Source: a phage. Taken from it: a DNA stretch of 64,000 nucleotides. Shown here piece by piece: positions 7,355-42,555 of the stretch. The translations under genes and the position numbers were made by a program. The notes under the pieces are model-generated. The model searched no databases. It was not told the origin of the DNA and saw only the letters and a list, made by a program, of their open reading frames with translations. The stretch lies in the sequence record NC_135731.1, one strand, 5' to 3'. Numbering within the stretch: the first letter of the stretch is position 1; each line of letters opens with the position of its first letter.

Positions 7355-7561
7355 ATGAAAGATTTTCTGTTGGCAATTTTGTTCATGGCAGCATGTCTGG
7401 CCTGTGGTGTCGTGTTTGCAGGTGAAACAGCGTATCTTGTCGATGTATATCGGGACAATGGTAAACGTATTTGCCTTTATGAGACAAGCCAAGGTGAGCT
7501 CTACGAGCTTGTGAAACAAGGCGAGGCTGGATCTTGTCCTCGCACCCATTTCTTTGAATGA
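7355..7561 (+). CDS. small secreted/membrane protein (68 aa)
   Basis: N-terminal hydrophobic signal-like segment LLAILFMAACLACGVVFA. Confidence 0.4.
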   Translation: MKDFLLAILFMAACLACGVVFAGETAYLVDVYRDNGKRICLYETSQGELYELVKQGEAGSCPRTHFFE

Positions 7562-7570
7562 GGAGAATAC

Positions 7571-8324: not shown

Positions 8325-8376
8325 GTCTATGATCTGATATTATCAGTTAACTATTTATTAACTAGGAGAACTAGGT

Positions 8377-8685
8377 ATGCTTAAAATTTTTATTGTTGAA
8401 GATAAAGATATCGTCCAGTTGTATGCAAATGAGAATCACAAAGGTATGATTCTGAAGAAGGCAAGCAACCTTCATGAAAACACAATTCAACCTGGCGATG
8501 TAATTAAGATCTGTGGCTATCTGATACCAGACTCCTTGATGAAAATAACCCACCACTGGGGGTCTAATCTGTTCCTTTTTGAAAAGTATTGGGATGTTGA
8601 GTCACTTATTGCAGAAAGTGATGATGCATTTCATTACAGCATCCAACCATCTTGCAGAATAACTAACAGGAGGGGCTTTGAGTAA
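8377..8685 (+). CDS. hypothetical protein (102 aa)
   Basis: ORF with AGGAG RBS. Confidence 0.45.
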   Translation: MLKIFIVEDKDIVQLYANENHKGMILKKASNLHENTIQPGDVIKICGYLIPDSLMKITHHWGSNLFLFEKYWDVESLIAESDDAFHYSIQPSCRITNRRGFE

Positions 8686-9817
8686 AGAATATCCACTTAT
8701 TGAATCTGTAGATTGTCTTGCTGATCTTCTCGAACCTGACGCTATAGTTTATTATGACTTCGACCAGGTTGCATATCAAGCTGCGGCAAGTTGTGAAAAA
8801 AGGACAATTGAGGTAACACACAAAGCCTCCGGACGCAAGAAGATGTTTAAAACACGAACAGAGTTCTGGGGGCGGCAGAAAAACACCGTTGGTGGTTGGT
8901 TAAAAGCTGAGAATACCAACCGTGAAGCCGCATGTAAAAAGGCTGGAAAGGAGTTTATTCCGTGGACACGCGAAGATTTCGATGTCTTGGATATCCAAAC
9001 CCCTGATCCTGTAGAGAACTGCTTACACACAATTAAGTGTAAAGCTAATGCAGTTCTTAACTATCTTGGTATTCCGGAAGAGCGATGTGTCGGGGTGTTG
9101 GGAGGCACAGGTAACTTCAGACTAGATCTTCCAATGCCGGAAAGATACAAAGCCAACCGTAACAATACTCTTCGACCACTGCTGCTTGGAGATGCAAGAC
9201 AGTATCTCCAAAAGCAGTATAATGCTCAAGTGATCAACGGTATCGAGGCTGACGACTGGTTAGCTATCCAGCAATTTGAAGGTTGGAACCACTACCAAAA
9301 AACAGGTAAGTTCAACAAGTTTATTATCTCTATTGATAAGGACCAAAGAACACTACCTGGACTTGTGTTCGATCCCATGCGAAACGATAAGGGAGATTTT
9401 GTAAGGGAAACCCCTATGCTGATCGATAACGGCATGGGAAACATCTTCATGAAGCCTAATGGAGAGGTTGGTGGTTACGGAATGCTGTTCTTCGGATACC
9501 AAATGCTGTGTGGTGACTCTGCTGACAACATCAAGCCGTATCAAGGACTTATCGGTAAGGGTAAGTTCGGGGATGCCTCAGCATTCTACCTGCTGTCTCA
9601 GTGCAGCACTCCAAAGGAGATGTGGGTGGCTATTATTGATCAGTACAAGAAGTGGTTCCCGAAAGGTGTTGTTAAGTATACTGACTTCAATGGCATTGAT
9701 CGTAGAATTTCCGTAGGTCAATGGATGAGTATAATTTTTGACTGTTTGTATATGAAGCGAACATTCAATGATCAAACAAAACTTGTTAACGTTCTTAGAA
9801 ATGTTGGAGCAATTTGA
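8678..9817 (+). CDS. 5'-3' exonuclease / flap endonuclease (T5 D15 / T4 RNase H-like)
   Basis: Matches to T5 D15 motifs: ERYKANR, INGIEADDWLA, ISIDKDQ, GDSADNIKPYQGLIGKGKFG. Confidence 0.65.
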   Translation: MSKEYPLIESVDCLADLLEPDAIVYYDFDQVAYQAAASCEKRTIEVTHKASGRKKMFKTRTEFWGRQKNTVGGWLKAENTNREAACKKAGKEFIPWTREDFDVLDIQTPDPVENCLHTIKCKANAVLNYLGIPEERCVGVLGGTGNFRLDLPMPERYKANRNNTLRPLLLGDARQYLQKQYNAQVINGIEADDWLAIQQFEGWNHYQKTGKFNKFIISIDKDQRTLPGLVFDPMRNDKGDFVRETPMLIDNGMGNIFMKPNGEVGGYGMLFFGYQMLCGDSADNIKPYQGLIGKGKFGDASAFYLLSQCSTPKEMWVAIIDQYKKWFPKGVVKYTDFNGIDRRISVGQWMSIIFDCLYMKRTFNDQTKLVNVLRNVGAI

Positions 9818-28633: not shown

Positions 28634-28873
28634 ATGTACAAGTCATTTTCAATCTACTCAAGACAGGCGAAACACTACACAGAGATCCTGATCACTCAGA
28701 AAAAATCTGTGGAAGGTGAGTGGGAATATCACCATAAAATGTTGCGTCCAGACTGGGTTTTTGATAGACTTATTGCTATGATCCCTCTCGGAGAAGTATA
28801 CCCTCTGACAGCCCATCGCGATGCTTGGGATTTAATTGATTACATAGATTCATTTAAGGAGCCTAGATTATGA
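28634..28873 (+). CDS. hypothetical protein (79 aa)
   Basis: Internal ATG preceded by GAGGGGGGG RBS. Confidence 0.45.
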   Translation: MYKSFSIYSRQAKHYTEILITQKKSVEGEWEYHHKMLRPDWVFDRLIAMIPLGEVYPLTAHRDAWDLIDYIDSFKEPRL

Positions 28874-29268
28874 AGATTGAGATTACTAAAGAAGGTAAGA
28901 AAGTGTCCGGCAACTATGCAACAGTAATTCGGGATTTAATGTTTGAAGCCACCAAGATCGGTACATCTAAAGTTGGTCAAACTGTTAGTGTGAAAAGTAA
29001 TATCTCCACAGGAGAGAAGGTATTCATTGTGGTCAAAGGGCAGGATCCCGTGGAAGGAACAGTGGGCCGAGGTGGCTACCTGTGCATTTCTGAAGAGCCG
29101 CGTATGTTAGTGGCTGACGCTACTATGGGTGGGAAACGTGTGTGCGAGGCGGATGAGGTAATGATTATCCAACCTGTTGATCCAGATGACCCAGCAACTT
29201 GGGTGGTAGGAAATGAAATCTTCTCTTTAGAAGAGTTATCCTTCCCAGCACCGCGCTCTGTTCAGTAA
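28870..29268 (+). CDS. small acidic protein, MKIEI/MKVK paralog family
   Basis: Starts MKIEIT like other array members; ATGA overlap. Confidence 0.5.
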   Translation: MKIEITKEGKKVSGNYATVIRDLMFEATKIGTSKVGQTVSVKSNISTGEKVFIVVKGQDPVEGTVGRGGYLCISEEPRMLVADATMGGKRVCEADEVMIIQPVDPDDPATWVVGNEIFSLEELSFPAPRSVQ

Positions 29269-29305
29269 TAATTTATCTTACCAGGGACGGTAGGTAGGAG
29301 GTAGC

Positions 29306-29539
29306 ATGAAAGTTAAATTTCTTACAGATTTAGGGTACCCTTCCTTAGTTGACTGCGTTGGTAAAATTGTGGAAGCAAAACGACTATCTGCAAACGATAA
29401 TGTTGTCATGGTTAAGGGAAAAGATTTACTATCTGCAGGTGCAGAGTCTGGCAGGATCTCTCCTGATTATATGTATTACCTATCTTTAAGTAATCTGCCA
29501 GAGCGAGGCGGTAAAGGCCTTGAAGTTGTGGAGGAGTGA
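29306..29539 (+). CDS. small acidic protein, MKVK paralog family
   Basis: MKVKFL...VKGKDLLSAGA...EVVEE shared with paralogs at 32966, 33183, 35057, 35325. Confidence 0.55.
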   Translation: MKVKFLTDLGYPSLVDCVGKIVEAKRLSANDNVVMVKGKDLLSAGAESGRISPDYMYYLSLSNLPERGGKGLEVVEE

Positions 29540-29544
29540 CAGGT

Positions 29545-30069
29545 ATGCTTCTGATTAACTGGGAAGACCTCTATGGGGACAAAGACCCTGTTGTGTTTGT
29601 TGATCGTAGGTGGAGATACACTGAAGAACAACTGGCGGCAAAAAATTTAACTGCAAAACGCAGAAAGATCATCCAGTGCAAATACAAATACGCACAGTTT
29701 GCTGCAAAAGTGTCTCCACAAATCGAGAGCTTTGTGCTTAAATTGTATGACGAATACCTCGAATTCAAATTGGATTTTGTACAGGTATACCGTGCACAGA
29801 TACGCCCAGATACCAACATATGTAGATGGAAGGTTGTTTGTGACGGTAAAGATTTGCCGCTCAGCTTGACAATTGAGCGGCGTTATGGATATCATGAGTG
29901 TGGTCTGTATGATATTTGGGATGTCATTGTAGATCCTGCTAAGTACCTGAACACAGAGGAGCTGGAATATATCAATAAGGTTATTCTAGATATGTTTTTC
30001 AACTACACCCGTGAAAACTCCGAGAAAGAACGAGATAATTTTCTTGACACCATCAGCAACCGTCTGTAG
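29545..30069 (+). CDS. hypothetical protein (174 aa)
   Basis: ATG after GGAGGA RBS. Confidence 0.5.
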   Translation: MLLINWEDLYGDKDPVVFVDRRWRYTEEQLAAKNLTAKRRKIIQCKYKYAQFAAKVSPQIESFVLKLYDEYLEFKLDFVQVYRAQIRPDTNICRWKVVCDGKDLPLSLTIERRYGYHECGLYDIWDVIVDPAKYLNTEELEYINKVILDMFFNYTRENSEKERDNFLDTISNRL

Positions 30070-30099
30070 TATATAATCTAACCTACAAAGGGAGGACTA

Positions 30100-30336
30100 A
30101 TGAGTATAAATGTTGTGCTAATAGGTTACCTGGTAATAGCCGTTATAACGGCGGTATTCTTGACAGGTGTATGCATCGTGTTCACACGAAGGGTGAAGTT
30201 TGATGATTTTATCATTATCATCACTGCTGCACCTTTTTGGCCTGTTGTTATCCCCATCGTGATAATGTGCCTGGTGGATTACTACAAGAATATCCGTAAG
30301 GAGAAAAAGGAGAGTAGGGATGGAGACCGCACCTAA
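30100..30336 (+). CDS. small membrane protein (78 aa)
   Basis: Two hydrophobic segments; GGAGG RBS. Confidence 0.5.
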   Translation: MSINVVLIGYLVIAVITAVFLTGVCIVFTRRVKFDDFIIIITAAPFWPVVIPIVIMCLVDYYKNIRKEKKESRDGDRT

Positions 30337-30555
30337 AACTGTTTATACTGTTCTTAAAGAGATTGCGTTCTACGCAGATCTTAGCCAGGCACCTTTATGG
30401 GAAAAGAGCATGTATTTAAAATGGTGCGTTAATTTAGGGAGACCTTCCAGTGTTTCAAGCCATGTTTATTGAGATGCTATCTGGGGTATTGTTACTGGTA
30501 GCCATCTTAGGTGGTGCAGTTCTGATGTATAACTATCTTGAAAAAGGAGACAGCA

Positions 30556-30741
30556 ATGGCAAAAAATAAATCTTTAGAGCAGGCTGAAAACCTTCTCCAC
30601 GAGCTGGTAAAGGAGTGGAAAGTTGAATACTCAGATTTTAATGCACGGGAGGGTGAAGATTATTGGCCTACGGAGCGATCAGAGGGCGAATGGTATCAAG
30701 ATTTTATAGAGTGGCTATATCAGACGTGTGATGAGGGGTGA
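30556..30741 (+). CDS. hypothetical acidic protein (61 aa)
   Basis: ATG after AGGAGA RBS. Confidence 0.4.
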   Translation: MAKNKSLEQAENLLHELVKEWKVEYSDFNAREGEDYWPTERSEGEWYQDFIEWLYQTCDEG

Positions 30742-31199
30742 CGATGTTTGTTAAATATGTAAAAACGTGCCTCAACAATCTTGGTAGAGAGCATTGGTAC
30801 ACCTTGCTTGAAAAAGGAGAAATTCTAACAAAATCCGGAAAGATAACTTTGATACCTTTGGACGATAAAGACCCGTCACTCCTTGTCATAGATGATTACG
30901 TTACAGGTGTGTCGTACGAGGTCTCTGTGGAGAGGTTAATACGCAGATCTGGAGGTCCTTATGACCGAAGAGAGTATGTTTTCGATTCTGTTACAGAGAA
31001 GGAAGATCCGTCTCTAATGTTCAGGATGGTAATCAGAGATATGAGGTCATCTATAGACAGGATCGTAAAGGACATTAAGGAGCCTTTTAGGGTAAAAGTT
31101 AAGAAGTTTTTTGATTCTAAGATTAACATACTTGCCGTTGTGCTAGGCGTAATTCAACTTCTGTTAATTTTGCACTATCTTGAACTGTTGTTTAAGTAG
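30738..31199 (+). CDS. hypothetical protein with C-terminal transmembrane anchor
   Basis: C-terminal hydrophobic LAVVLGVIQLLLILHYL. Confidence 0.45.
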   Translation: MTMFVKYVKTCLNNLGREHWYTLLEKGEILTKSGKITLIPLDDKDPSLLVIDDYVTGVSYEVSVERLIRRSGGPYDRREYVFDSVTEKEDPSLMFRMVIRDMRSSIDRIVKDIKEPFRVKVKKFFDSKINILAVVLGVIQLLLILHYLELLFK

Positions 31200-31259
31200 T
31201 GTGCAATAAGGCACAAAGGATGTGCCATAACTAAATAAACTAAGAAAGAGGTAGAGAGA

Positions 31260-31607
31260 ATGCCAAAGATTAAATCGATATTAATGTGGGTAGCTGTTGT
31301 AGCTTTTGTAGGATACTGGACTTGGGAAACTGAATTAAAAGATATTGGATATACCAGTCTTGAGAACAAGGCGTGCATTGGCATAACCGATGCATTCAGG
31401 CAAAATGCTATGGATCACGAATGTGTCGATGCAGACATAGATGAGAAACTGTCTAAGGACAAAGACTTCTACCACGGGTATGCTTTGCTTGATAGTGGGG
31501 ACACTGTAGAGTTCTGGTCGTGGTTCCGTAAAGATGGAACAATAAAAACAGCAGTAAAGATCTCTAACAAAGAGTTAATGCTGTTGCAGCAGAAGGAGGC
31601 TCAATGA
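31260..31607 (+). CDS. hypothetical protein with N-terminal transmembrane segment
   Basis: N-terminal ILMWVAVVAFVGYW; GAGG RBS. Confidence 0.45.
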   Translation: MPKIKSILMWVAVVAFVGYWTWETELKDIGYTSLENKACIGITDAFRQNAMDHECVDADIDEKLSKDKDFYHGYALLDSGDTVEFWSWFRKDGTIKTAVKISNKELMLLQQKEAQ

Positions 31608-31891
31608 TCTGGATATCCTATGCTGATGGCACCATGCTGTATACTGCAGGTACCAGATATGAAGTTCAGGAGAACGATAAAAAATTTATCGTAAGAACAT
31701 TTGACAAGGACGACAACCTTTTGCTAGAATTAACTTACAAGGTTGGGGATGTATCTAGCATCCAATTGGATTGTGGTCATAAAGATAACCCCCTCAAAAA
31801 ACCTGGAATAGGCAAGGCTTCAGAAGAACGTTTGTCTCGTATTGCAGAAAGCGTTTCTAACCAAAAACCCAAAAAGAGGACCAGAAAATGA
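31604..31891 (+). CDS. hypothetical protein (95 aa)
   Basis: ATGA-coupled ORF. Confidence 0.45.
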   Translation: MIWISYADGTMLYTAGTRYEVQENDKKFIVRTFDKDDNLLLELTYKVGDVSSIQLDCGHKDNPLKKPGIGKASEERLSRIAESVSNQKPKKRTRK

Positions 31892-32088
31892 GTGACAAAA
31901 TTCTTAAATTTAATACCTACTACGAGAATGATTTGAACGATCTGTATTATATAGTGCGTAGCGAAAACCCGAATGTAGTGCTGTTTTGCAGAGAACCTTT
32001 CAAAAGAGAGGAGATTGAATCTACCATGGATGTGGATCAGATTTCACACCTGCTGCTCCTTGGATCATTAAAAGAGGCAGTATTCTAA
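31888..32088 (+). CDS. hypothetical protein (66 aa)
   Basis: ATGA-coupled ORF. Confidence 0.4.
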   Translation: MSDKILKFNTYYENDLNDLYYIVRSENPNVVLFCREPFKREEIESTMDVDQISHLLLLGSLKEAVF

Positions 32089-32107
32089 ACCAGGGTGGAG
32101 GGTTTTT

Positions 32108-32293
32108 ATGAAGCACTATTGTCTATCTGGTAGAATGGGTGCAGATTGTGATTGGGTTTTCTTAAAACTTGTCAGCATTCGAGAGTTCATCCCGGAGGAA
32201 GAGCAAGAAAGCGAGCTGATGTCATGGATCAACCATTACGGTAACACTTTTCGGCATGTTAAGGTGGAAGAGTTGCCAAGCGAGGCTGATTGA
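32108..32293 (+). CDS. hypothetical protein (61 aa)
   Basis: ORF with GGAGGG RBS. Confidence 0.4.
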   Translation: MKHYCLSGRMGADCDWVFLKLVSIREFIPEEEQESELMSWINHYGNTFRHVKVEELPSEAD

Positions 32294-32388
32294 CTATGAT
32301 TGCATCAATATTAACGTTTATGGGCGGCGTGGCATTCGGATTCATTGTTTGCCTGTTTATAGTGATTATGTCTATGCGAGGCTGAATT

Positions 32389-32685
32389 ATGAAACTTTTT
32401 GAGTGGTTTAAAAAGTTTAAATATAAAGCTGTAGCCATCGTGCCATGGTCCATTCAATGGGTGGACGATGAGGGATTACCAATTCCAGGTGATAAAGACA
32501 CGGGATACTGGATCATGCTTGAAAACGGGTTTGGAAAGCGAAAATATACGTGCACAAACTCTACTCGATCTGCACTTAATAGAGTGCCTGGTTACAAACT
32601 TATGGTTGTGTGGAAAATGTCAGGCGTGCCTCCAGCTAACGCTCAATTTCTTACTGACAATCCAACCACGGTGGAGGGAGATTGA
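32389..32685 (+). CDS. hypothetical protein (98 aa)
   Basis: ORF with RBS. Confidence 0.45.
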   Translation: MKLFEWFKKFKYKAVAIVPWSIQWVDDEGLPIPGDKDTGYWIMLENGFGKRKYTCTNSTRSALNRVPGYKLMVVWKMSGVPPANAQFLTDNPTTVEGD

Positions 32686-32969
32686 CAATGAAAAAGATTA
32701 ACAGTGGTGAAGTTGAGTTTAAACTTGTCGGGAAAGGCACTTACTGGGAAGTTCGTCAAAAGGTATATTTGTTCGGTCTTATTCCCTATTGGTCTAAATT
32801 CTACTGGGGAGCTAACGAGTGGGGAAGATACGCCACCAAATCAATGGCACTTATTGGTATAGCAGAGTACATTGCAGCCAGAGATAGGGTTGGAGACACT
32901 TATTACTATACTGCGGACGATATTCGTAACAGTGTTTACGTCCCACAACCACCTGATGGAGACCGTTGA
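32682..32969 (+). CDS. hypothetical protein (95 aa)
   Basis: ATGA-coupled ORF. Confidence 0.45.
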   Translation: MTMKKINSGEVEFKLVGKGTYWEVRQKVYLFGLIPYWSKFYWGANEWGRYATKSMALIGIAEYIAARDRVGDTYYYTADDIRNSVYVPQPPDGDR

Positions 32970-33193
32970 TGAAAGTTAAAGTTTTAGATTCAAGCTTCTA
33001 TATTGGTCAGGAGCCTTTAGTAGGAAAAGTGTTTACTGCTATCCCTAACGAAGATTACCCTGACCTTTTAAAAATAAAAGGAGCAGATCTTATTGCCGCT
33101 GGTGCATCTCAGGACTGCTTTGACAGTCAGTGGACCTACAACTTTGCCCTAGGCGAGGATGTAGAGGTAGTGGAGGACGATCATGAAGGTTAA
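32966..33193 (+). CDS. small acidic protein, MKVK paralog family
   Basis: MKVKVLDS...KIKGADLIAAGA...EVVEDD. Confidence 0.55.
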   Translation: MMKVKVLDSSFYIGQEPLVGKVFTAIPNEDYPDLLKIKGADLIAAGASQDCFDSQWTYNFALGEDVEVVEDDHEG

Positions 33194-33437
33194 AATTCTT
33201 GATTCTAACGTCTACTTGGGACAATCCTTCCTGAAGGGAAAGGTCGTTCCTGCGGTATACTTTGAAGGGTTGCCGTGGGATGATCCTGTGCGGCAACATC
33301 ACAGTTATGTAGGCCACAACGTGGTGTTTATCTTGGGATCAGACCTGATCACCGTTGGTGCACCTGAATATTATTTCGGGGAAGAGTCCTATTATGCCTT
33401 TGGGGTAGGGTCAGATGCGGATATTGTAGAGCTGTGA
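33183..33437 (+). CDS. small acidic protein, MKVK paralog family
   Basis: MKVKILDS...LGSDLITVGA...IVEL. Confidence 0.55.
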   Translation: MKVKILDSNVYLGQSFLKGKVVPAVYFEGLPWDDPVRQHHSYVGHNVVFILGSDLITVGAPEYYFGEESYYAFGVGSDADIVEL

Positions 33438-33449
33438 TGGGTAACTGTT

Positions 33450-33848
33450 GTGAAAAATAAACTGTTTAAAGTTACAATGAAAATTCGCGGAGCTTGGAGC
33501 GTAAAGCAAGGGCGTATTCCGGAATTTGAGAAAGACTTCTACGTAGTCTCCACCTCGGAGGAGGCTGCATGCTGGCAGGCTGGCTATGCCTATGCAAGAA
33601 CCTGGTACGAAGGATACCAGACTGGGGGCTATGACGGAGAAATTATCAGCAAGGGTGTAGAAGAAATTAATGTGTTGACAAGTGAAAAAGTTTTTGTTAT
33701 AGTGCATCCAGATTCCAGAGTGAAGCATTACTGGAATGCCAGAACAAAAACTTGGACACCGTTTGCAGATTCTGCTACACCACTTTTAAACCAAAAAGCT
33801 CTTGACTCTGCCCCAAGCTATGGGGTTGTTGAAGAAAAGCTAAACTGA
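33450..33848 (+). CDS. hypothetical protein, paralog of 35657-36052
   Basis: Shares HYWNARTKTWTP / YYWDVLNNEWTP region with paralog; GTG start supported by paralog alignment. Confidence 0.5.
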   Translation: MKNKLFKVTMKIRGAWSVKQGRIPEFEKDFYVVSTSEEAACWQAGYAYARTWYEGYQTGGYDGEIISKGVEEINVLTSEKVFVIVHPDSRVKHYWNARTKTWTPFADSATPLLNQKALDSAPSYGVVEEKLN

Positions 33849-33865
33849 AACAGTGAGGTGTCACT

Positions 33866-34156
33866 ATGATGGATTTAGTTCTGAATATTGATAACGCAGG
33901 AGAGGTTAAAGACGATGGTGTAACAAGCATGGACCAACCATGCCCTGCCAAGATTGACTCAAAATGGACATATAAGTTTGACGGAGAGATCTTTGCAAAT
34001 GATGAAAAGGTTGTAGATGCTGCAGCCATTTTGAACGCTCTAGGGTACGACCCTGTGAATTCTTTGATCAAGGATCCTGTTGAGTTTGCAGAGTATGTTC
34101 GAAAAATGGCAGATCTTGCTGTAGATATTTTAAGAACTATCGACAACAAGCTGTAA
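33866..34156 (+). CDS. hypothetical acidic protein (96 aa)
   Basis: ORF with GAGGTG RBS. Confidence 0.45.
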   Translation: MMDLVLNIDNAGEVKDDGVTSMDQPCPAKIDSKWTYKFDGEIFANDEKVVDAAAILNALGYDPVNSLIKDPVEFAEYVRKMADLAVDILRTIDNKL

Positions 34157-34161
34157 AACTG

Positions 34162-34190
34162 TTGACACAACGCTTCAGATTTAGTATCAT
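34162..34190 (+). promoter_or_regulatory. sigma70-type promoter
   Basis: TTGACA-17 nt-TATCAT, followed by hairpin AAGAGGG...CCCTCTT. Confidence 0.5.
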
Positions 34191-34237
34191 TGTTTTCAAA
34201 GAGGGTTTGGTTCCCTCTTCTTTAAAAGGAACACGTT

Positions 34238-34555
34238 ATGCAAATTGAAATCACTGGCAACGTAGAAATCACTGAAGGTATGGTGTCTTTCATTTCCCAC
34301 AAAATGTCTAAGCTGGAGCGTTTGCACCCATCTGCCAACTATGCACGTGTGAGTGTAAAAGTTGAAAATGATCACCAGGAAGTTATGGCGTTCATTTTTG
34401 ACAATTCTGGAAAAGAAGTTATTGCCAAGGCTAAAGGCAGTGATGCTTACGAGGCAACTGACCGTATGGTAGATGTTGCAGCACGTCAGCTGGCTAAATG
34501 CGGTGGAAAGAAAGGTAAGGGGAAAGGCAAAGTAAAGATTGACTTTGGAGAATGA
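34238..34555 (+). CDS. Ribosome hibernation promoting factor homolog (HPF/RaiA/YfiA family)
   Basis: MQIEITGNVEITEGM...KLERL...VKVEN...AKGSDAYEATDRMVDVAARQLAK aligns with E. coli HPF MQLNITGNNVEITEAL...KLEQY...LKVEK...AEGQDMYAAIDGLIDKLARQLTK; lysine-rich tail. Confidence 0.7.
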   Translation: MQIEITGNVEITEGMVSFISHKMSKLERLHPSANYARVSVKVENDHQEVMAFIFDNSGKEVIAKAKGSDAYEATDRMVDVAARQLAKCGGKKGKGKGKVKIDFGE

Positions 34556-34692
34556 GGTGCTACAATGGGTGTGATTAAGAAATTAGTCCCAAATGTAGAG
34601 ATTGCATGCTTTGAAATTATGTTTGCAATCGCAGTTGTAGTTAATGTGTTAGGTTACGGCTATTAATATCAAATAATTGAGGAGACCTCTAA

Positions 34693-34962
34693 ATGAAAAT
34701 TAAATTATTCAAAACCGAGCTGGCAGACAAAAACTGTGGACTGGTTGAAGGCATGATCGTTGAAGCACAACCAGTAGACTACATGAAGGTAGTTCGTGAT
34801 GCCTTGGGTGAAGGTTTTGATCTGATGGAACCAGCTCTGCGAGAAGATGTTATCGAGATGGCTAAAAAGCACACACCTGAAGGCATGGTGGTGTTTGTTG
34901 CACCGGGTAACGGAGAAGAGTTGATTGTAACCCCTGATGTGTATAAGATTGTAGAAGAGTAA
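34693..34962 (+). CDS. small acidic protein, MKIK paralog family
   Basis: MKIKLFK start, ends KIVEE; GAGGAG RBS. Confidence 0.5.
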   Translation: MKIKLFKTELADKNCGLVEGMIVEAQPVDYMKVVRDALGEGFDLMEPALREDVIEMAKKHTPEGMVVFVAPGNGEELIVTPDVYKIVEE

Positions 34963-35056
34963 TCCTGCTTGGATTAGCATGCTTCCTCAATAAAAAGAGA
35001 AGTTTGTAATTATTTGTGGGAAAGGAATCCCAATCTCTTACCAGAGGTGATACTAT

Positions 35057-35320
35057 ATGATTGTTTATTTTAAAACTTCAGGTGGATACCCTGATTCTCA
35101 AAGCTTGATTGGAAAAACGTGCACAGCATACTCGCCTCTAGATGATGAGGTAAGTGATACCCTACGAAATATGTACCGGATTGATCCACAAGAAGCTTTT
35201 GATCAAAACCTTGTATTTGTTAAAGGCTCAGACATGAAGGCTTTGGGGGCATTTCCTGAAGCAGATGATGATGCTGTTTATTCGTTTATGACTCCTTTTG
35301 AAGCTATGGTTGTTGGGTGA
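35057..35320 (+). CDS. small acidic protein, MKVK paralog family
   Basis: GYPDSQSLIGK...VKGSDMKALGA motif shared with paralogs. Confidence 0.5.
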   Translation: MIVYFKTSGGYPDSQSLIGKTCTAYSPLDDEVSDTLRNMYRIDPQEAFDQNLVFVKGSDMKALGAFPEADDDAVYSFMTPFEAMVVG

Positions 35321-35324
35321 TAAT

Positions 35325-35657
35325 ATGAAAGTACGCTTTATTGGTGAAACAATTCCTGTGCATCTTCGGTCGCCTGAGGATTCTGCAGATCTTGCATCTC
35401 AAAAGGCCAGAGGGTATGATAAGAAAGTAACCTCAACCGATGTAGTGCTTGAGGCTACTAGTCTGCCCGACCCTGCTGCATTCTTTAATCATTATGGATA
35501 CTATTTCAGCAATCTGATGAATATCGGTGAGCTTGTGTTTATTAGCGGTGGAGAAATTGTTAGCAAGCTTGGCGGCGATCCGGATGTCTTTCATGAAACC
35601 TGTCCTTTTGCATTTGTGGTTGGTTCAGATGTGGAAGTTATTGAGGAGGTGCGGTAA
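35325..35657 (+). CDS. small acidic protein, MKVK paralog family
   Basis: Internal ATG (MKVRFIGE) of ORF 35298; ends EVIEEVR. Confidence 0.5.
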   Translation: MKVRFIGETIPVHLRSPEDSADLASQKARGYDKKVTSTDVVLEATSLPDPAAFFNHYGYYFSNLMNIGELVFISGGEIVSKLGGDPDVFHETCPFAFVVGSDVEVIEEVR

Positions 35658-36052
35658 TGGTAAGCCTATACCGTGTTGAGTATAGCTCAGATACTGTGTA
35701 CAACGTAAGAAGCAAAGATCGCAGCGACAGAGTGCAAGAAATGTATGTTCTTGCCGACAGTCCGTTATCTGCAGCGTTCAAGGCAGGGGCTCTTGCATCT
35801 CGTTGGAAATTTGAAGGCGGATCTTTCTATGAAGAAACCCTTGAAGATTCTGTTGTTATTTCTTCTGTAGAGGTTTCAGATGACTACGAAGGGAAAAAGT
35901 TCGTAATGCGGCACCCGCACAGCAACATTGCGTACTACTGGGATGTTCTTAACAACGAGTGGACCCCAGATCTTCAGAAGGCTACTGTGCTAACACCGTT
36001 TTTGGCAGATAAGTTCCCACCAGAAGGTAATTTATCCGCACTGTTTCAGTAA
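35657..36052 (+). CDS. hypothetical protein, paralog of 33450-33848
   Basis: ATGA-coupled; paralog similarity. Confidence 0.5.
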   Translation: MVSLYRVEYSSDTVYNVRSKDRSDRVQEMYVLADSPLSAAFKAGALASRWKFEGGSFYEETLEDSVVISSVEVSDDYEGKKFVMRHPHSNIAYYWDVLNNEWTPDLQKATVLTPFLADKFPPEGNLSALFQ

Positions 36053-36070
36053 TTTTCTTGCACACAGGTG

Positions 36071-36099
36071 TTGACAACGCCAACCCTGTGTGAAATAAT
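36071..36099 (+). promoter_or_regulatory. candidate promoter flanked by inverted repeat
   Basis: TTGACA-17 nt-AATAAT; CACACAGG ... CCTGTGTG inverted repeat brackets the -35. Confidence 0.4.
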
Positions 36100-36128
36100 A
36101 CCTTCATCTTAACAAGACAGGAGACCGA

Positions 36129-36389
36129 TTGATGAAGATTAAATTGAAAAACCTTGAAACGGCAGAGATTCAGGACGGTGTTGATTTCCGTTCTAAAGAT
36201 GGTGACATCTTAGAGGTAAATATTCCAACCTACGAGCTGATCAAAGGTTTTGGCAACGTCCCAGAGGAAGGTATCGCAGACGTTCTTCTAATGTTAATCG
36301 TTAGTGGGACAGTGTTCTTGGGTGAAGGTGAGAACGCTATTGCAATCCCAAGCCATTTTTATGAAGTAGTTGACGAAGAGGTGCTGTAA
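36129..36389 (+). CDS. small acidic protein, MKIK paralog family
   Basis: MMKIKLKN start, ends EVVDEEVL; AGGAGA RBS. Confidence 0.5.
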   Translation: MMKIKLKNLETAEIQDGVDFRSKDGDILEVNIPTYELIKGFGNVPEEGIADVLLMLIVSGTVFLGEGENAIAIPSHFYEVVDEEVL

Positions 36390-36740
36390 ATGAAAGTAGA
36401 AATTACTGGTTTTGATGTTAGTGTGGTTCCGGAAGATATTTTAGCTAACTTGCCGGAAGGTTTTGGTAATGGTGTTGTGGTGGATGCTGTTCCTCCTACC
36501 AAAGACATTCTGCTGCAGTATGGTGTAGCAGAGGAGGATGTCGATAAAGTTCTTACAATGATGGCAATCGATCGTGTTGTCGTTGTTAAAGGTCTCGATA
36601 ATTTTGAGAGTGATCCTCTGATTATTCGCGGGGATGACTACCGAATCATTGATAATGAAGGCCAGGAGTTCTATGAGCCTTGTGCAGAAGATATTCTTAA
36701 CTTGTTACTGGAAGCAGGCACCGCAGAGGAGAACGAATAA
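36390..36740 (+). CDS. small acidic protein, MKVEI paralog family
   Basis: MKVEITG start; tightly coupled. Confidence 0.5.
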   Translation: MKVEITGFDVSVVPEDILANLPEGFGNGVVVDAVPPTKDILLQYGVAEEDVDKVLTMMAIDRVVVVKGLDNFESDPLIIRGDDYRIIDNEGQEFYEPCAEDILNLLLEAGTAEENE

Positions 36741-37069
36741 TGAAGATTGACCAGTTACTGAAGGCTCGTGCAGAAAAAGCGTACACCATTAAGCTGACCA
36801 ACCTGGTTCCTACTTGTCATCCAGATGTAGGTTGGCCCGAAGGTTTGGTGGAGGGAACTGTAACAGCTGCATATCTTCCTAACATCAAATACCTTATGGA
36901 AATCTTGGAGCTGGATGAGGAAACGGCAGAAGAGTTCCAGTTGGACATGAAACAAAGTGGGACTCTGGTTATTCATGGGTGGTACAATACTAAAGATGCA
37001 GAAGATCCTCTGGTAACTTCTAATCTGGCATATGAAATCTTAGGGCCTTTGAACCTGGAGGAAGACTAA
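36740..37069 (+). CDS. small acidic protein (109 aa)
   Basis: ATGA-coupled ORF. Confidence 0.5.
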   Translation: MKIDQLLKARAEKAYTIKLTNLVPTCHPDVGWPEGLVEGTVTAAYLPNIKYLMEILELDEETAEEFQLDMKQSGTLVIHGWYNTKDAEDPLVTSNLAYEILGPLNLEED

Positions 37070-37356
37070 TGAAAGATCTGGTTAAGATTAAGATTAAAGA
37101 TACCAATGGAGAACTCAGCCATTTTGGAATTAATGATGGTGACGAGCTGATCGCACACCTGCCTACCAAGGAGGTTGTAAGCAAAGCAGTTGCCGGAGAA
37201 GAAGCTGCAATGCAGGCTGCAGGTGTGGATGAAAACTATGTAGCTATGTGCATGTGCCGAGATCAGGTTGTTCTGTACAAAGCGTATCGACCAAACGGAG
37301 CCACGGAGTGGCTTGTATTCCGACCCGAAGGATATGAAATCTTAGAGGCACTATGA
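37069..37356 (+). CDS. small acidic protein (95 aa)
   Basis: ATGA-coupled ORF. Confidence 0.5.
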   Translation: MKDLVKIKIKDTNGELSHFGINDGDELIAHLPTKEVVSKAVAGEEAAMQAAGVDENYVAMCMCRDQVVLYKAYRPNGATEWLVFRPEGYEILEAL

Positions 37357-37445
37357 TAAATCTTGCCAAGGTTGCAACGGCACTGTTAATTATTTGCTGG
37401 TCAGTAACCTTAACACTGTGTCTTGTATTTCAGTAAGGTGCTTGT

Positions 37446-37709
37446 ATGAACATCCTGATGTGGGTTATAGCAGTGGCGTTTGTTGCATGTTTTTGCTGCT
37501 GGGTTGCGGTGAGGATTTCTGTAGCTACCCTTCGGAAGTTGGGGTTCTCAGAATGGGATATTAATATCCTTTCTTTTCGCAATGAAACAATCTCAGCCGC
37601 CCTGCTTTGTAAGAAATTCAAGTGGGAACCTTGTGAGGTCATGAACTATCTAAGAACAGGTGATATTCCTGAAAGATTTAAAAAAGTTCTTGACGGCAAG
37701 GATAAATGA
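37446..37709 (+). CDS. hypothetical protein with N-terminal transmembrane segment
   Basis: N-terminal ILMWVIAVAFVACFCCWV. Confidence 0.45.
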   Translation: MNILMWVIAVAFVACFCCWVAVRISVATLRKLGFSEWDINILSFRNETISAALLCKKFKWEPCEVMNYLRTGDIPERFKKVLDGKDK

Positions 37710-37864
37710 CAGTATAGTGACTAACAAGAGGTGAGGAGTGACTGATTTTACTGAAGCTTTAATGATGGCCTTGTCTGTTTTAGCGCTATCGGTGTGTTTT
37801 GGGGCGTTATTCACATCTCTGGTTAAAGTTTTACATACAGTATTATTACCCAAGGAGCGCAGTA

Positions 37865-38116
37865 ATGACGAAGATTGACTTGAATGCTGGCGACCATGTT
37901 GTTGTCAAATGCATCGGAGATTATCTTGGATTCACAATCGGCAATACTTACGAGGCGGTAGTGGCGAAGGTTTATCATGATAAAGTCCTCAGTCTTGTAT
38001 TTGACTGCGATGATGATGGGGATGACCGATACGTCTGTGAGGTGCTGGCACGAGACGATAGTGAAGACCAGAAATTCCTGGTTATTGAACTGAACGGTAT
38101 TTTTGTAGAACGTTAA
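37865..38116 (+). CDS. hypothetical protein (83 aa)
   Basis: Internal ATG (MTKIDL) after AAGGAG RBS. Confidence 0.45.
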   Translation: MTKIDLNAGDHVVVKCIGDYLGFTIGNTYEAVVAKVYHDKVLSLVFDCDDDGDDRYVCEVLARDDSEDQKFLVIELNGIFVER

Positions 38117-38144
38117 TTTAAAACAACATAAGGAGACTCTTACT

Positions 38145-38450
38145 ATGGCTAAATCTAAAGTTGAACTGTTCACCTCTCTTCCTTCTGACACTGCAGAACG
38201 TGATCGCCTTCGCAAAACAATCGAAGAACTGGTGGAACTCCAGCTTCAGATTAAAGATCTGAAAGATGCCATCAAGGATATCATTCTTGTTGAGAAGCAG
38301 GATCATCTGTATTCTCCTAAATTCATCAAATCTTTGGTGGCTACAGAGTTTGATATCCGCTACGAAGCTGAAAAACGTCGCGCTAAGATTGAAGAAGAGG
38401 TTGAGCACATGTCTGAGGCAGACATTCTGTTCAAACGCTCTGTAGAATAA
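38145..38450 (+). CDS. hypothetical coiled-coil protein (101 aa)
   Basis: AAGGAGA RBS; followed by terminator hairpin. Confidence 0.5.
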   Translation: MAKSKVELFTSLPSDTAERDRLRKTIEELVELQLQIKDLKDAIKDIILVEKQDHLYSPKFIKSLVATEFDIRYEAEKRRAKIEEEVEHMSEADILFKRSVE

Positions 38451-38456
38451 TATGGC

Positions 38457-38480
38457 AGAGGGGCTACGGCCCCTCTTTCA
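38457..38480 (+). terminator. Rho-independent terminator
   Basis: AGAGGGGC-TACG-GCCCCTCT then TTTCACTATTT; lies inside the 5' end of ORF-track ORF 38452, arguing for a later start. Confidence 0.55.
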
Positions 38481-38505
38481 CTATTTGCAAAAGGAACCAG
38501 CTATG

Positions 38506-38829
38506 AGAATGCCAATCACTGTGAAAGAGCTAAATGAACGTGATGCAGGTGGTCTATGGCCTGCACGAAAAATCCGCTGCGTCTATATGAAAGAGAATCT
38601 TGAACATCTTGATCAACAGATCAAGGTCGGTGATATTTTCGAGGTCTTCTATTCCAATCGTCGCAACTGGGAAACCATTCAGCCTTCTGGTTTTGTTCTT
38701 GCCAAACTTGACACTGGAGAAGTGATTATCCCTGGGTTGGATATTGTCTTCGAAATTATCCAGGAGTGGGATCCGGATAAGATTAGATACGAAGAATTAT
38801 TCGGTAAAGGTATTATCAAACCTGTGTGA
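38506..38829 (+). CDS. hypothetical protein (107 aa)
   Basis: ATG (MRMPITV) after AAGGAA RBS, downstream of terminator. Confidence 0.45.
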   Translation, partial: RMPITVKELNERDAGGLWPARKIRCVYMKENLEHLDQQIKVGDIFEVFYSNRRNWETIQPSGFVLAKLDTGEVIIPGLDIVFEIIQEWDPDKIRYEELFGKGIIKPV

Positions 38830-39137
38830 GGTGGATTATGTCTACAAAGGCGGCTAAATACTCATATATGCCATCAACCTCTGCAGAGGTAGACTTTAGT
38901 TTCGATGTATTTCCACTGTTTGAGGTGGTTCTGGCATACCCTGCAATACTATCTACTCCTGAATCACTTGTGCCTGTTAAGTTGCAGAACGCTATGCATT
39001 CCATGCACTACAACAATAAATGTAGGCACAGATGGTGTCAGGACGAGGGAAAAGATTTGGATAGTTTGAGGGATTTTGACAGTCACCTTTTGACACCTTT
39101 CAGCTACTCCAACCTTGATAAGCCCTCATGGGTATAG
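38826..39137 (+). CDS. hypothetical protein (103 aa)
   Basis: Coupled ORF. Confidence 0.4.
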   Translation: MRWIMSTKAAKYSYMPSTSAEVDFSFDVFPLFEVVLAYPAILSTPESLVPVKLQNAMHSMHYNNKCRHRWCQDEGKDLDSLRDFDSHLLTPFSYSNLDKPSWV

Positions 39138-39160
39138 AAAATATCAAATTTAAGACACCT

Positions 39161-39190
39161 AGGACGCTCTGTGGCGTCCTTTTCTTTATC
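39161..39190 (+). terminator. Rho-independent terminator
   Basis: AGGACGC-TCTGTG-GCGTCCT followed by TTTCTTTATC. Confidence 0.65.
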
Positions 39191-39496
39191 TGGTGCACGA
39201 TTGCATACCTTGGACAGATAATCTCATTACAGAGCGTTTAAGAGCTTCCTACAAACAACTCCATATTTCGAGCGTAGCGAGAACGCACGTCCGTTTTGAC
39301 CCAAATCACCATACGCTCGGATTTTAACCAAACCCTCGCGGCGTTTCTGTTGACACATTGCCACTCTCGTGATAGTATCCACACATAGTTTGGAGAATAT
39401 GAGGTACACAATGAGAACATTGTCCGAAGTTTTGGTGGTGATCCTGATGATCATTATGTCCATAGCGGCTGTTGCCGGAATACTCACGGGTGGAAC

Positions 39497-39709
39497 ATGA
39501 TAAACACACATGCATCTGAAGATACATCCAAAGGAGTGACTATATGTCCCTTGGCTGAGCCAGTGAAAGAGGAAAACTTCGATTCTGAAGATTCTCCATC
39601 TTCGCTCCAGGTAGATCCTGAGGCTGACGACCTAACGTGGGAAGACATCGTAGATATCTGGTTCTCTATTATGCCTGAGCACGAAGAGTTCAGGGGTGGT
39701 AGACTATGA
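39497..39709 (+). CDS. hypothetical acidic protein (70 aa)
   Basis: ATGA overlap with preceding 29-aa membrane peptide ORF (39411-39500). Confidence 0.35.
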   Translation: MINTHASEDTSKGVTICPLAEPVKEENFDSEDSPSSLQVDPEADDLTWEDIVDIWFSIMPEHEEFRGGRL

Positions 39710-39830
39710 AGCACCGAGCCCACACAGGTTCCTCATGCTAAAGCATGGCCTGAAGAGGCAAACGTGTATAATTCTAGCGTATTGGAACGTATAAAACCCT
39801 GTTCACACTCTCATTCCCAGAGGAGATTTC

Positions 39831-40046
39831 ATGAAGATAGAAATATTTGGTGGAGCTGACAACACTCGTGGCCTGATTTACCTTGAATTCGATGAATCAT
39901 ACCTGCCAGAGGTGTTAAATATAGACTCTGTTGCTGAGGCTTTGGGAGTAAACCCTAAAGAACTTCACTCTTGTGCTGAGATTGATGGTTGGGAGGAGAC
40001 CATGAACATCGATTTTAGTGAAGTAGGGGATGAACCACTGGACTGA
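39831..40046 (+). CDS. small acidic protein, MKIEI paralog family
   Basis: MKIEIFGG start; last + strand gene before non-coding hub. Confidence 0.5.
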   Translation: MKIEIFGGADNTRGLIYLEFDESYLPEVLNIDSVAEALGVNPKELHSCAEIDGWEETMNIDFSEVGDEPLD

Positions 40047-40395
40047 CACACAATTAGCTGCCTGGCTAAAGTGCTGGAGCACCTATAGCACATCTTTCAA
40101 CTAAATTTCCTACCACCACAATCACTTACCTCCCACACATGACTGTTTGCTTGTTTAGTGAGCAGTCATGCCTTGACATTCTTGTCTATCCTGATAAAAT
40201 TAAGTTCTTCTCTTTTCTTTTACCGAGTAATTCGGGTTTTCTGTTCTCTTCGGTTTGAAGGGGTATGGAGATACACCTGAGTGAACAGGGTGAACAACCG
40301 AACCATTGGCTATGGCATTAGCATGGCGAAGCGGACGGGTGACGAAAGAGGGGCCGGAGGACACTAGTCACTGCCATATGATATATGGGTGATAA

Positions 40396-40958
40396 CCTGA
40401 AGAGTCTGAATAAGTGTTTAAGTACCAGTCAGAGGAAAAGGTGAATGGTAGCCGAAGGGGGAGGGGGGTTTCTTGTATCTTTAATTTGTATATTATGCAT
40501 ACACTTGTAAACCAATCTCATCTGAATCTGTTTACCACACAAAGTGGATTGAGACAAATATTACCTATTAAACCTGAATTATTTATAGAAAATACCACAA
40601 CACCACTTAAGTCTTTGATTTTACACATAAATCCTACAGATATTCACCCTCCATATTTAACATACTTGTAACATATCCCATACTCTACCTGTCTGATCAA
40701 TTTCCCCAACCACATCCCCATATTTTCCCTTCCTGTACTACCCCTGCCCCGCCGGGAGTCCCGTCATATCTGGCTTTCCAGCAAATATCACACCCACAAA
40801 TATCATTGCCTGAAGAGGGTTTCATCCCATAATACATGCCTTACCTGAAGAGCGCTTCATATACCCCGTAAATTTTTTAATTGACCCCCCTCCCCGCCGC
40901 CGGAGAGGTTGGCTTTTCCCACACAGACCTGAAGAGTCAGCCAGAAATATCTGAAGAG
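40396..40958. repeat. five dispersed YCTGAAGAG direct repeats
   Basis: Copies at 40396, 40809, 40844, 40928, 40950 in non-coding DNA. Confidence 0.6.
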
Positions 40959-41240
40959 GGTCCAGTTCTACCCTGTCAGGAGCCGGTAGCGACTGGAGTG
41001 CTGCCAGGCGGACGAAATGGGAATACTTCTCATTCTTATAACAATTCTCAAATATCGAGGCAGTGAGGCAAATTAATAGGTTAGGCCGTTCACACAGTGG
41101 CACAACATTTGCAACCTATCTTGTGGGAGTGAATGAGAATACCTATCATTGTGAGAATAGTTATCATTACGGGCAATTTAACATAATACCCATTATGCGC
41201 ACCACTGGCGATACATACAGGGATTGATAACATGAGTTAC

Positions 41241-42102
41241 TGTTTACACACATAACAATTATATTTCTTACTATTTGTGTGGGATATAGTTAGCAGCCGA
41301 TAGATTAGATATTGACCTGCGGACTTCTGACCATCTAGACGTCTAAACGCCCACACAACAAGGCTTATACATACATCGCTGAATGTAAACAGGGCCGCAA
41401 AAATGCTACCATACAAGCTTGTAAATTTTTCATGCAGCACTTGACAAAGAGGAGAAAAACTTGTCTGACACAATATGACTTAATTGCCACAACATGACAC
41501 TTTTGCACACCTGATTGTTTGCATATCTAATAGTTTACATGGATAACTGTTCACATACTTATCATTTACATGATTGACTGTTTACACAGAGATGATAAGC
41601 CATGCCATTCGTTTGCATGATAACAATTAACCAGTTTACAATTAACAAGTTAATAATCTTTCGCTGGCTATGCCAGGTGACTAGGTCACCCCTTCAGGTG
41701 TTTCTATGACATAATATAAAAGCAGGGCAACTATTAGCAGATCTATAGTTGCCTTGCTTGTCATGTCATGATTAACTAAATACAAGGCAACTATGATCTG
41801 ATTAATAGTTTGCAGACAAACTATCACGGGGGTGATGGTTACTGCTTTTATATTATGTCGCGACTCCGTCGCGCCATGCCATTCGTTTGCATAGTTGCCT
41901 TATTGTTACGAATAAAACAATTGCATTGTTAATGATTTCTTATCTTTCTCTTAGTCATCTAATGATTCCAGTCAGTATAGTAATGTACAGTAAACATTAG
42001 ACGACTAAAGATTTCTCTGTTTATTATAACTTACCGTTACAATTTCGGACTGTTTACCAAGAATGTTGACACATAAGCTGATTTATGTTATGCAGTTTAC
42101 AC
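41241..42102. repeat. iteron cluster, at least 8 copies of GTTTACA-type motif
   Basis: Copies at 41241, 41534, 41548, 41565, 41580, 41633, 42051, 42095; plus duplicated CCATGCCATTCGTTTGCAT at 41590 and 41864. Confidence 0.6.
41656..41839. repeat. nested palindrome / cruciform-capable region
   Basis: 18-bp perfect inverted repeat GACATAATATAAAAGCAG (41688-41705 and 41822-41839) enclosing palindrome GGCAACTAT...ATAGTTGCC (41706-41733); GGTGAC-TAG-GTCACC at 41656. Confidence 0.65.
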
Positions 42103-42517
42103 GAATAATTATTTTATGCAGGTATTGACTATTCCGTTATTCCATGGTTGGAATAAATACTTAGCAGACTATAGAATGGTGAGCGTACGTAAATTCTGAG
42201 ATCTGGCGGCTATAGTTATACTCGATTTTTCACGTAGAACACGCTTTTGTGAGTGTGTAAGTGTATGACTTATAAAGATTTTTAGTTGTTGACAAGATAT
42301 TGAAGATGTGCATCAGGTTAAATTTTGTGCAATAGCGGCATTACGTGCAATCTTGAGAGAGAAAACGGGTAAAAATGGCCCTGCTACCACACAATGAAAA
42401 ATTATGCAATAGTTATTTTACATGTATGTTTGTACAGTGTGTGGGATTGATGGCTAGTCAATTATTCCACTTGCCAGGCTGGGCCGTTTGTGGTAGGAGA
42501 AATACAGACAAAAAGAA

Positions 42518-42537
42518 AGGGGCCTTTTAAAGCCCCT
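42518..42537 (-). terminator. Rho-independent terminator for minus-strand block
   Basis: AGGGGC...GCCCCT hairpin followed on minus strand by TTCTTTTTGTC. Confidence 0.55.
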
Positions 42538-42555
42538 GATAGTTTAGTTAAGAAA

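Follow-up and report, generated by a model that had tools for sequence, protein, structure and literature searches.

The stretch of DNA analysed here (the window: 64,000 nucleotides of sequence record NC_135731.1) belongs to Escherichia phage phiWec196, a virulent phage of the genus Vequintavirus (rV5-like myoviruses), of which LC739542.1 is an identical record. Within positions 29306-37356 of the window, twelve neighbouring small genes on the + strand form three paralogous families, with five members in family A, five in family B and two in family C (Table 1; genes are referred to by their start positions). A preliminary description of the locus, made from the sequence alone, had taken 28870-40046 for a single tandem array of about 11 acidic paralogues, possibly a host-takeover or anti-defence arsenal, and had proposed alignments with profile hidden Markov models (HMMs), structure prediction and comparison of copy number across related phages as ways to check it. 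The small + strand genes that it listed are present and are annotated as hypothetical proteins in LC739542.1. The 11.2 kb so delimited shares 90-97% identity with most of the roughly 120 other Vequintavirus records. The array comes close to the far end of an extended run of small + strand genes, and an opposing - strand unit converges on that run across a gene-free stretch of about 2.4 kb.

Three families of small, mostly acidic proteins

Similarity among the 33 + strand open reading frames (ORFs) compared by BLASTP linked 32966 (32969 in Table 1) with 33183 (E 1e-13, 37% identity), 33450 with 35657 (E 2e-8, 28% identity), 29306 with 32966 (E 1e-6) and 35298/35325 with 32966 (E 1e-4). Membership of families A and B was assessed by leaving out one member at a time: an HMM built from the remaining members was searched against all 416 six-frame ORFs of the window, and 500 composition-preserving shuffles of each left-out member served as control. 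The left-out protein ranked first of 416 for every member of family A (E 2e-5 to 6e-14) and for every member of family B (E 2e-6 to 5e-3), and its real score was reached by 0 of 500 shuffles in each case. As these matches beat all shuffles, acidity alone is no explanation for them. All A and B members are indeed acidic, with isoelectric points (pI) of 4.05-5.4, as had been described, but unrelated neighbours are acidic as well.

The five proteins in which a core pattern had been recognised beforehand (29306, 32966/32969, 33183, 35057 and 35325) are therefore a true family, our family A. Of the looser members then listed, 34693, 36129 (36132 in Table 1), 36390 and 37069 do belong together, not with the core family but in a second one, family B, which also takes in 36740, a member that had been overlooked. 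The interleaved pair 33450/35657 stands as family C, both proteins falling in phrog_7379. By contrast, 28870 and 39831 are not supported as members by their sequences (leave-one-out ranks 14 and 108; hhalign not significant after 28 tests). All that these two share with family members is the N-terminal start M-K-[IV]-[KE]-[IVFL], which is locally enriched: 8 of the 10 such ORFs of the 138.7 kb genome fall in the array region. No further A, B or C members were found elsewhere among the 803 six-frame ORFs of the genome.

Alignment and profile HMMs thus gave significant similarity within A and within B and none between them. Profile-profile comparison of A with B by hhalign was not significant (P 0.03-0.06, probability below 2%, with only the first 12-31 columns aligned), and a joint A+B model recovered the members less well than the separate models did, 35057, 35325, 36740 and 37069 falling to ranks 5-44. 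The weaker pooled model and the non-significant hhalign comparison lead us to count three families by sequence. The paralogy first proposed was therefore correct, whereas the single family was not.

Existing profiles capture these families in part. The phrog_5009 profile matches 32966 (E 5e-38) and 33183 (E 3e-31) as well as 29306, and 35057 weakly (E 2.8e-5); 35325 matches only its own phrog_13661. No Pfam family, SH3 profiles (SH3_1 and relatives) included, matched the members at E up to 0.1, and searches of Pfam, NCBIfam and PDB sequences gave nothing meaningful. A hit of 36740 to NCBIfam RluB (16.7 bits against a cutoff of 290) was discarded as noise.

Two gene starts deserve comment. That of 33450 may lie at 33477, as annotated in Bas54, and that of 35325 was set by PHROG 13661.

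Table 1. Positions of the family genes, of the excluded candidates and of other features in the phiWec196 window (LOO, leave-one-out HMM test; log2FC, log2 fold change; pN/pS, ratio of nonsynonymous to synonymous polymorphism)
Feature	Coordinates	Strand	Product	rV5; Bas54 counterpart	Observations
Family A member 1	29306..29539	+	77 aa, pI 5.4	gp122; bas54_0166	LOO rank 1, E 1.2e-5; phrog_5009 E 8e-36
Family A member 2	32969..33193	+	74 aa, pI 4.05	gp135; bas54_0159	Family A protein chosen for modelling
Family A member 3	33183..33437	+	84 aa	gp136; bas54_0158	11 nt overlap with the 32969 gene; LOO E 6e-14
Family C member 1	33450..33848	+	132 aa	gp137; bas54_0157	phrog_7379; pN/pS 0.05
Family B member 1	34693..34962	+	89 aa, pI 4.6	gp141; bas54_0153	Family B protein chosen for modelling
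Family A member 4	35057..35320	+	87 aa, predicted insert between strands 2 and 3	gp142; bas54_0152	LOO E 1.4e-6; phrog_13920
Family A member 5	35325..35657	+	110 aa, predicted extra N-terminal loop and insert	gp143; bas54_0151	LOO E 1.9e-5
Family C member 2	35657..36052	+	131 aa	gp144; bas54_0150	Start overlaps the stop of the 35325 gene; phrog_7379; pN/pS 0.03
Family B member 2	36132..36389	+	85 aa	gp145; bas54_0149	LOO rank 1, E 5e-3 (weakest member); 0/500 shuffles reach its score
Family B member 3	36390..36740	+	116 aa, acidic C-terminal extension	gp146; bas54_0148	LOO E 1.9e-6
Family B member 4	36740..37069	+	109 aa	gp147; bas54_0147	LOO rank 1, E 1.1e-3; 0/500 shuffles reach its score
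Family B member 5	37069..37356	+	95 aa	gp148 and gp149 (two ORFs in the rV5 record); bas54_0146	LOO E 3.4e-5
Candidate, not supported	28870..29268	+	132 aa		phrog_5748; LOO rank 14, E 8.5; hhalign P 0.03-0.09
Candidate, not supported	39831..40046	+	71 aa		phrog_12108; LOO rank 108; hhalign against family B profile P 0.006 over 40 columns
bas54_0140 orthologue, not a family member	38838..39137	+		bas54_0140	97% identical; 1.5 kb downstream of the array; log2FC -5.48 on CFE311
Sigma-70-like promoter match	34539..34566	+			TTGACT, 16 nt spacer, TACAAT, with TG; 10/12; ahead of 34693-35057-35325-35657; consensus match only
Sigma-70-like promoter	36071..36099	+			TTGACA, 17 nt spacer, AATAAT, with TG; 11/12; ahead of four consecutive B genes; P150 in rV5

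The genes may be expressed from host-type promoters. A scan of 27.5-43 kb for the sigma-70 consensus (at least 10 of 12 matches) returned twelve promoter-like sites, all on the + strand, two of which (34162-34190 and 36071-36099) coincide with the annotated promoters P144 and P150 of rV5 (NC_011041). Many sigma-70-type promoters across the rV5 genome have been reported (PMC3606486). The statement that most of the genes are translationally coupled holds in a reduced form, since, of the 11 junctions from one family gene to the next, 6 have an overlap or a gap of no more than 12 nt. Families A and C occur twice in the order A-A-C (32969-33183-33450 and 35057-35325-35657); pairwise similarities by BLASTP settle neither for nor against one segmental duplication behind both groups. 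Midway along the array lies a gene (34238-34555, + strand) for an HPF/RaiA-like ribosome hibernation factor, for which a separate sigma-70 promoter is annotated at 34162-34190; the gene has a pN/pS of 0.01 and is non-essential on K-12.

Predicted fold, conservation and spread

Structure prediction gave confident models for one A and one B protein. AlphaFold2 models were made from alignments of 20 (A) and 19 (B) family sequences. The family A model (32969) has a predicted local distance difference test score (pLDDT) of 89.7 and a predicted template modelling score (pTM) of 0.77, with strands at 2-5, 21-23, 33-37, 56-61 and 65-69. The family B model (34693; pLDDT 91.5, pTM 0.71) has strands at 2-5, 22-27, 66-69, 76-79 and 84-88 and three helices at 30-60, inserted between strands 2 and 3. 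Both models are confident and predict for each family one five-stranded SH3-like beta-barrel of about 60 core residues, apparently with the same strand order. The two models share a list of SH3, KOW and PsaE structure matches (for example 2vkn_A, 7ud6_A, 1w6x_A, 4zn3_A, 8z11_e and 2akl_A), and the predicted models superpose on such solved domains. Foldseek comparison of the family B model with viral models (BFVD) found a B paralogue or orthologue only and nothing annotated; the match was to the ECP32 orthologue of 37069 (E 2.4e-3).

Three parts vary in both families: the loop that joins strands 1 and 2, the stretch from strand 2 to strand 3, where 0 to about 35 residues are inserted, and the acidic C-terminal end. 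In the longer A members (33183, 35057 and 35325) the extra residues are placed between strands 2 and 3, the position of the insert of family B. This placement is consistent with A and B being distant relatives, but a shared SH3-like barrel is weak proof of common descent, a view that we hold with only modest preference.

Within Vequintavirus the array is stable. In the six genomes used for comparison (rV5, FV3, V18, NHEP1, EcoIv14a_Aya and Bas54), copy number (five A, five B and two C) and gene order are identical, so that the comparison across related phages returned a constant set. Individual records deviate in that the orthologue of 37069 is split in rV5 and those of 35057 and 35325 are fragmented in V18. 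All twelve genes are under purifying selection, with pN/pS of 0.03-0.19 over orthologues in the six genomes, the C genes having the lowest values; the array is as constrained by this measure as the nearby HPF-like and regulator genes. A presence/absence difference of about 2 kb lies at 30738-32685, where about six small genes are found in phiWec196, rV5 and FV3 and Bas54 (5208-5296) is without them. One of these genes encodes a 153-aa protein labelled 'virion structural protein' in rV5 and FV3.

Natural hybrids of family A members are present in public assemblies. Two of them, P0013 and P0016, join a 32969-type N-terminal half to a 33183-type C-terminal half, the outcome expected of unequal crossover between these two neighbours. 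A third, P0028, has a prophage-type N-terminal half and a 32969-type C-terminal half. All three junctions lie at the conserved G-x-D-L-I-x-A-G-A motif.

Outside the genus the families differ in reach. An exhaustive profile search with family A over 1.84 billion representatives yielded 38 clusters, about 25 of which are distant proteins of 63-108 aa with the motifs MKVKLL, GKVV.A, G.ELI.AGA and Y.F..G.E.E.VEE. Among diverse family A relatives, 30 of 31 match phrog_5009 and none matches Pfam, and three proteins (P0104, P0114 and P0115) carry two or three tandem copies of the domain. A scan of IMG/VR with a family A subgroup alignment gave 4 loci. Families B (53 clusters) and C (6 clusters) were found only in Vequintavirus-like contigs or E. 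coli samples in a word-indexed set of 5.8 billion proteins, and in GenBank phages 36390, the one B member searched, has only Vequintavirus matches (at least 89% identity). No B or C relatives outside Vequintavirus were thus seen in this index or in GenBank phages, the exhaustive profile search having been aimed at A only.

The family A loci in unrelated virulent and temperate phages are all accessory-gene positions. In lambdoid E. coli prophages the homologue P0030 (49% identity to 29306) occupies the interval that separates the Q antiterminator from the holin; this prophage form is rare (13 of 5426 complete E. coli genomes). In another temperate phage a relative is found between RecT/YqaJ recombination genes and xis/int. 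Elsewhere, a relative is one of the first genes in Tlsvirus LL5, another belongs to a cluster of small genes in Krischvirus KFS-EC, and in an Aeromonas phage one adjoins the RNA ligase gene. Each locus examined outside Vequintavirus holds a single copy, with one matching place per record. In the E. coli prophage of GCA_014904275.2, positions 6200-9000 between Q and holin contain eleven small genes with no recorded Pfam match, P0030 among them; this interval is where lambdoid phages carry morons such as stx.

Transposon data from the related phage Bas54

Published transposon data connect part of the array with growth on a particular host. The HIDEN-SEQ preprint (bioRxiv 10.1101/2025.11.20.689424) covers Bas54 (Escherichia phage MaxBurger), in which the twelve genes have as orthologues bas54_0146-0153, 0157-0159 and 0166, with 89-100% protein identity. 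On K-12, nine of them were classed as 'non-essential' and 0151, 0152 and 0153 as 'intermediate' (10.1101/2025.11.20.689424). When K-12 was compared with the uropathogenic strain CFE311, insertions were depleted in bas54_0152 (35057, family A; log2FC -7.16), bas54_0151 (35325, family A; log2FC -6.17) and bas54_0150 (35657, family C; log2FC -6.77), each with an adjusted P of 0, and zero reads were left in these three genes on CFE311 (10.1101/2025.11.20.689424). The second C gene, bas54_0157 (33450), showed a four-fold drop (log2FC -2.14, adjusted P 0). The value for bas54_0153 (34693, family B; log2FC -2.78) was not significant, nor were those of the other seven genes (three A and four B; log2FC -0.3 to +1.0) (10.1101/2025.11.20.689424). 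All twelve genes are therefore dispensable on K-12, and at least one gene of the 35057-35325-35657 trio is needed on CFE311.

The family genes are unmentioned in the text of the preprint, as searched. Its authors followed up bas54_0063 and bas54_0140, which they report as required against the predicted defence system DS-28 of CFE311, and according to the plasmid and strain tables of the supplement the CFE311 systems cloned were only DS-28 and Gao_Tmn (10.1101/2025.11.20.689424). Behind the phiWec196 orthologue of bas54_0140 there is a strong terminator-like hairpin (39161-39180). This orthologue has no family match beyond its own genus; it formed no similarity pair with families A, B or C in the BLASTP comparison. 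In the facing - strand unit (42556-64000, bas54_0134 downwards), 0132, 0133 and 0134 are also conditional on CFE311 (log2FC -2.9 to -5.2), as are 0123, 0126 and 0127 (log2FC about -2.3 to -2.9). In the copy of Extended Data Table 8 that we used, the sheet 'resampling_K-12_vs_CFE303' holds the CFE311 numbers, with the 311 sample in its command line.

The gene-free stretch beside the array (40100-42550) covers about 2.4 kb between the converging units, has no convincing ORF and is rich in repeats. It contains three copies of a 21-nt direct repeat, ACATGAnTnACTGTTTACACA (starting at 41230, 41537 and 41568), inverted-repeat units GGCAACTAT/ATAGTTGCC at 41720-41908 and a perfect 18-nt inverted repeat (41708-41725 and 41842-41859), and it gave no Rfam match. 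A 'non-coding' box is marked on the genome map of rV5 (PMC3606486), and the Bas54 counterpart, of about 2 kb, received zero transposon insertions (10.1101/2025.11.20.689424). This stretch may serve as an origin of replication or have some other essential function in cis.

Interpretation and comparison with known systems

We read the array as a set of accessory binder proteins that are small, soluble and for the most part acidic, with, for at least 35057-35325-35657, a function in host-specific counter-defence or host adaptation, and consider the chances of this reading to be about even. The family proteins would be made from host-type sigma-70 promoters that lie inside a long transcription unit of the early or middle class, and their translation would often be coupled. 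Each could then bind a different host protein stoichiometrically, the barrel serving as scaffold and the loops and insert providing specificity. At least the A-A-C group 35057-35325-35657 would neutralise a host factor that certain E. coli strains, such as CFE311, possess and K-12 lacks, most likely a part of an anti-phage defence. The host-takeover or anti-defence arsenal of the preliminary description is thereby partly supported: published data agree with it for part of the array.

Several observations weigh against our reading. No member has a known target, interaction or biochemical activity. The pN/pS values correspond to plain purifying selection within the genus, with no whole-gene sign of an ongoing arms race. 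Eight of the twelve family genes show no significant effect on CFE311 (10.1101/2025.11.20.689424), and the depletion of 0152 and 0151 could be polar on 0150. On this last point, the HIDEN-SEQ authors argue against widespread polarity while allowing local effects, and report that transposons lying upstream of essential genes are as a rule tolerated (10.1101/2025.11.20.689424). In addition, 27 genes of Bas54, among them those for tail fibres and a helicase, are conditional on CFE311 (10.1101/2025.11.20.689424), and with so many such genes a host-specific requirement need not mean defence.

A bolder version of the same reading, about which we are doubtful, would make the SH3-like barrel a phage 'binder scaffold' that was copied and re-looped ten times within Vequintavirus, the copies being tuned to different host immune or stress proteins. 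The A-A-C groups would then be multi-part inhibitors of an unidentified defence in strains like CFE311, and family A a widespread, unnamed anti-defence domain of virulent and temperate phages alike.

Among the alternatives, the one that survives best, unlikely as we think it, is that the proteins are general host-takeover factors binding conserved machinery (ribosome, RNA polymerase, nucleoid proteins) instead of strain-specific defences. It would suit the position of the array around the HPF/RaiA-like gene, the presence of ribosomal proteins and NusG/Spt5 among the matches to the SH3-like, KOW and PsaE-type fold, and the 'intermediate', not fully dispensable, status of bas54_0151-0153 on K-12. 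However, no family gene is essential on K-12, the strong phenotype is confined to one host strain, and a pI of about 4-4.8 makes direct binding of RNA or DNA unlikely.

It is somewhat less probable again that each A-A-C group forms a unit of its own, as a small complex (for example an inhibitor with an adaptor, or a toxin-neutraliser set), with family B as a separate system. The first group's A genes (bas54_0158 and 0159) have no CFE311 effect, family A occurs without C in lambdoid prophages and other phages, and family C is found only in Vequintavirus-like contigs. These facts speak against such a unit. In its favour are the twofold occurrence of the A-A-C order, the close spacing inside each group (overlaps, or gaps of up to 12 nt) and the depletion on CFE311 of the second group's three genes and the first group's C gene, with the B genes unaffected, so that A and C proteins may work together.

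That the genes are evolutionary leftovers with little present function, persisting by hitch-hiking, and that the CFE311 signal reflects polar or local transposon effects, appears improbable. Genes of this kind might well be dispensable on K-12, as all twelve are, be split (the 37069 orthologue in the rV5 record) or fragmented (the 35057 and 35325 orthologues in V18), and lose a copy through fusions such as P0013 and P0016. They would not be expected to show pN/pS of 0.03-0.19 or to be kept, all twelve and in the same order, in six other genomes. Moreover, insertions were wholly lost from three consecutive genes on one host and spared in four downstream genes, a pattern hard to account for unless a product is required, and insertions upstream of essential genes are usually tolerated according to the HIDEN-SEQ authors. 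Finally, acidic DNA mimics of the Ocr/ArdA type, which would shield incoming DNA from restriction-modification, share low pI, small size and an accessory-region location with these proteins but are a very remote prospect, given a predicted fold that is a compact beta-barrel and not an elongated helical mimic, the 'exceptionally susceptible' Vequintavirinae, seemingly without effective protection from restriction-modification (BASEL, PMC8594841), and the lack of matches to known anti-restriction families in Pfam, NCBIfam and PDB sequences.

PHROGs places three A members, and weakly a fourth, in phrog_5009 (with 13367, 7345 and 8603) and the C pair in phrog_7379, both without an assigned function or a description; all B members, as well as 35057 and 35325, are in separate single-genus families, and neither five-member family is recorded as such. 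The words paralog and duplication are absent from the text of the rV5 genome paper. New with respect to the sources searched are the definition of family B, the SH3-like fold predicted for both A and B, the finding that family A is widely spread, and the link to an unremarked HIDEN-SEQ phenotype. In large virulent phages the majority of genes count as 'dark matter', and here twelve anonymous genes are sorted into three families, two with a confident predicted fold. With a three-gene subset tied to growth on a clinical E. coli, the array becomes a candidate, open to direct testing, for a role in host range or counter-defence, which is of relevance to the choice or engineering of rV5-like phages, a common therapeutic group.

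As a kind, arrays of accessory genes that matter on particular hosts are already known from virulent phages. The validated anti-defence gene bas54_0140 and the T4 and Bas37 examples of the HIDEN-SEQ preprint are likewise small accessory genes of unknown function, dispensable on K-12 and needed on one clinical strain. They differ in the assignment of a target: for bas54_0140 the defence was matched by plating the knockout on a strain with the cloned system, whereas no such assay is reported for bas54_0150-0152 and 0157. Family A homologues also occupy the same positions as the moron and accessory genes of lambdoid phages (the interval between Q and the lysis genes, and the early-left region), but prophages with family A carry one copy, in contrast to the five A and five B genes of a Vequintavirus genome. 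The tandem domain copies of P0104, P0114 and P0115 are a habit also common in binding modules. With respect to fold, the closest comparison is with SH3-like small barrels (eukaryotic SH3, the KOW domain of NusG/Spt5, PsaE and the C-terminal domain of PhnA-like proteins), to which identity is 4-24% with no relationship at the sequence level. Compared with these, the A and B proteins are free-standing and acidic, and family B and the longer A members are predicted to carry an insert between strands 2 and 3.

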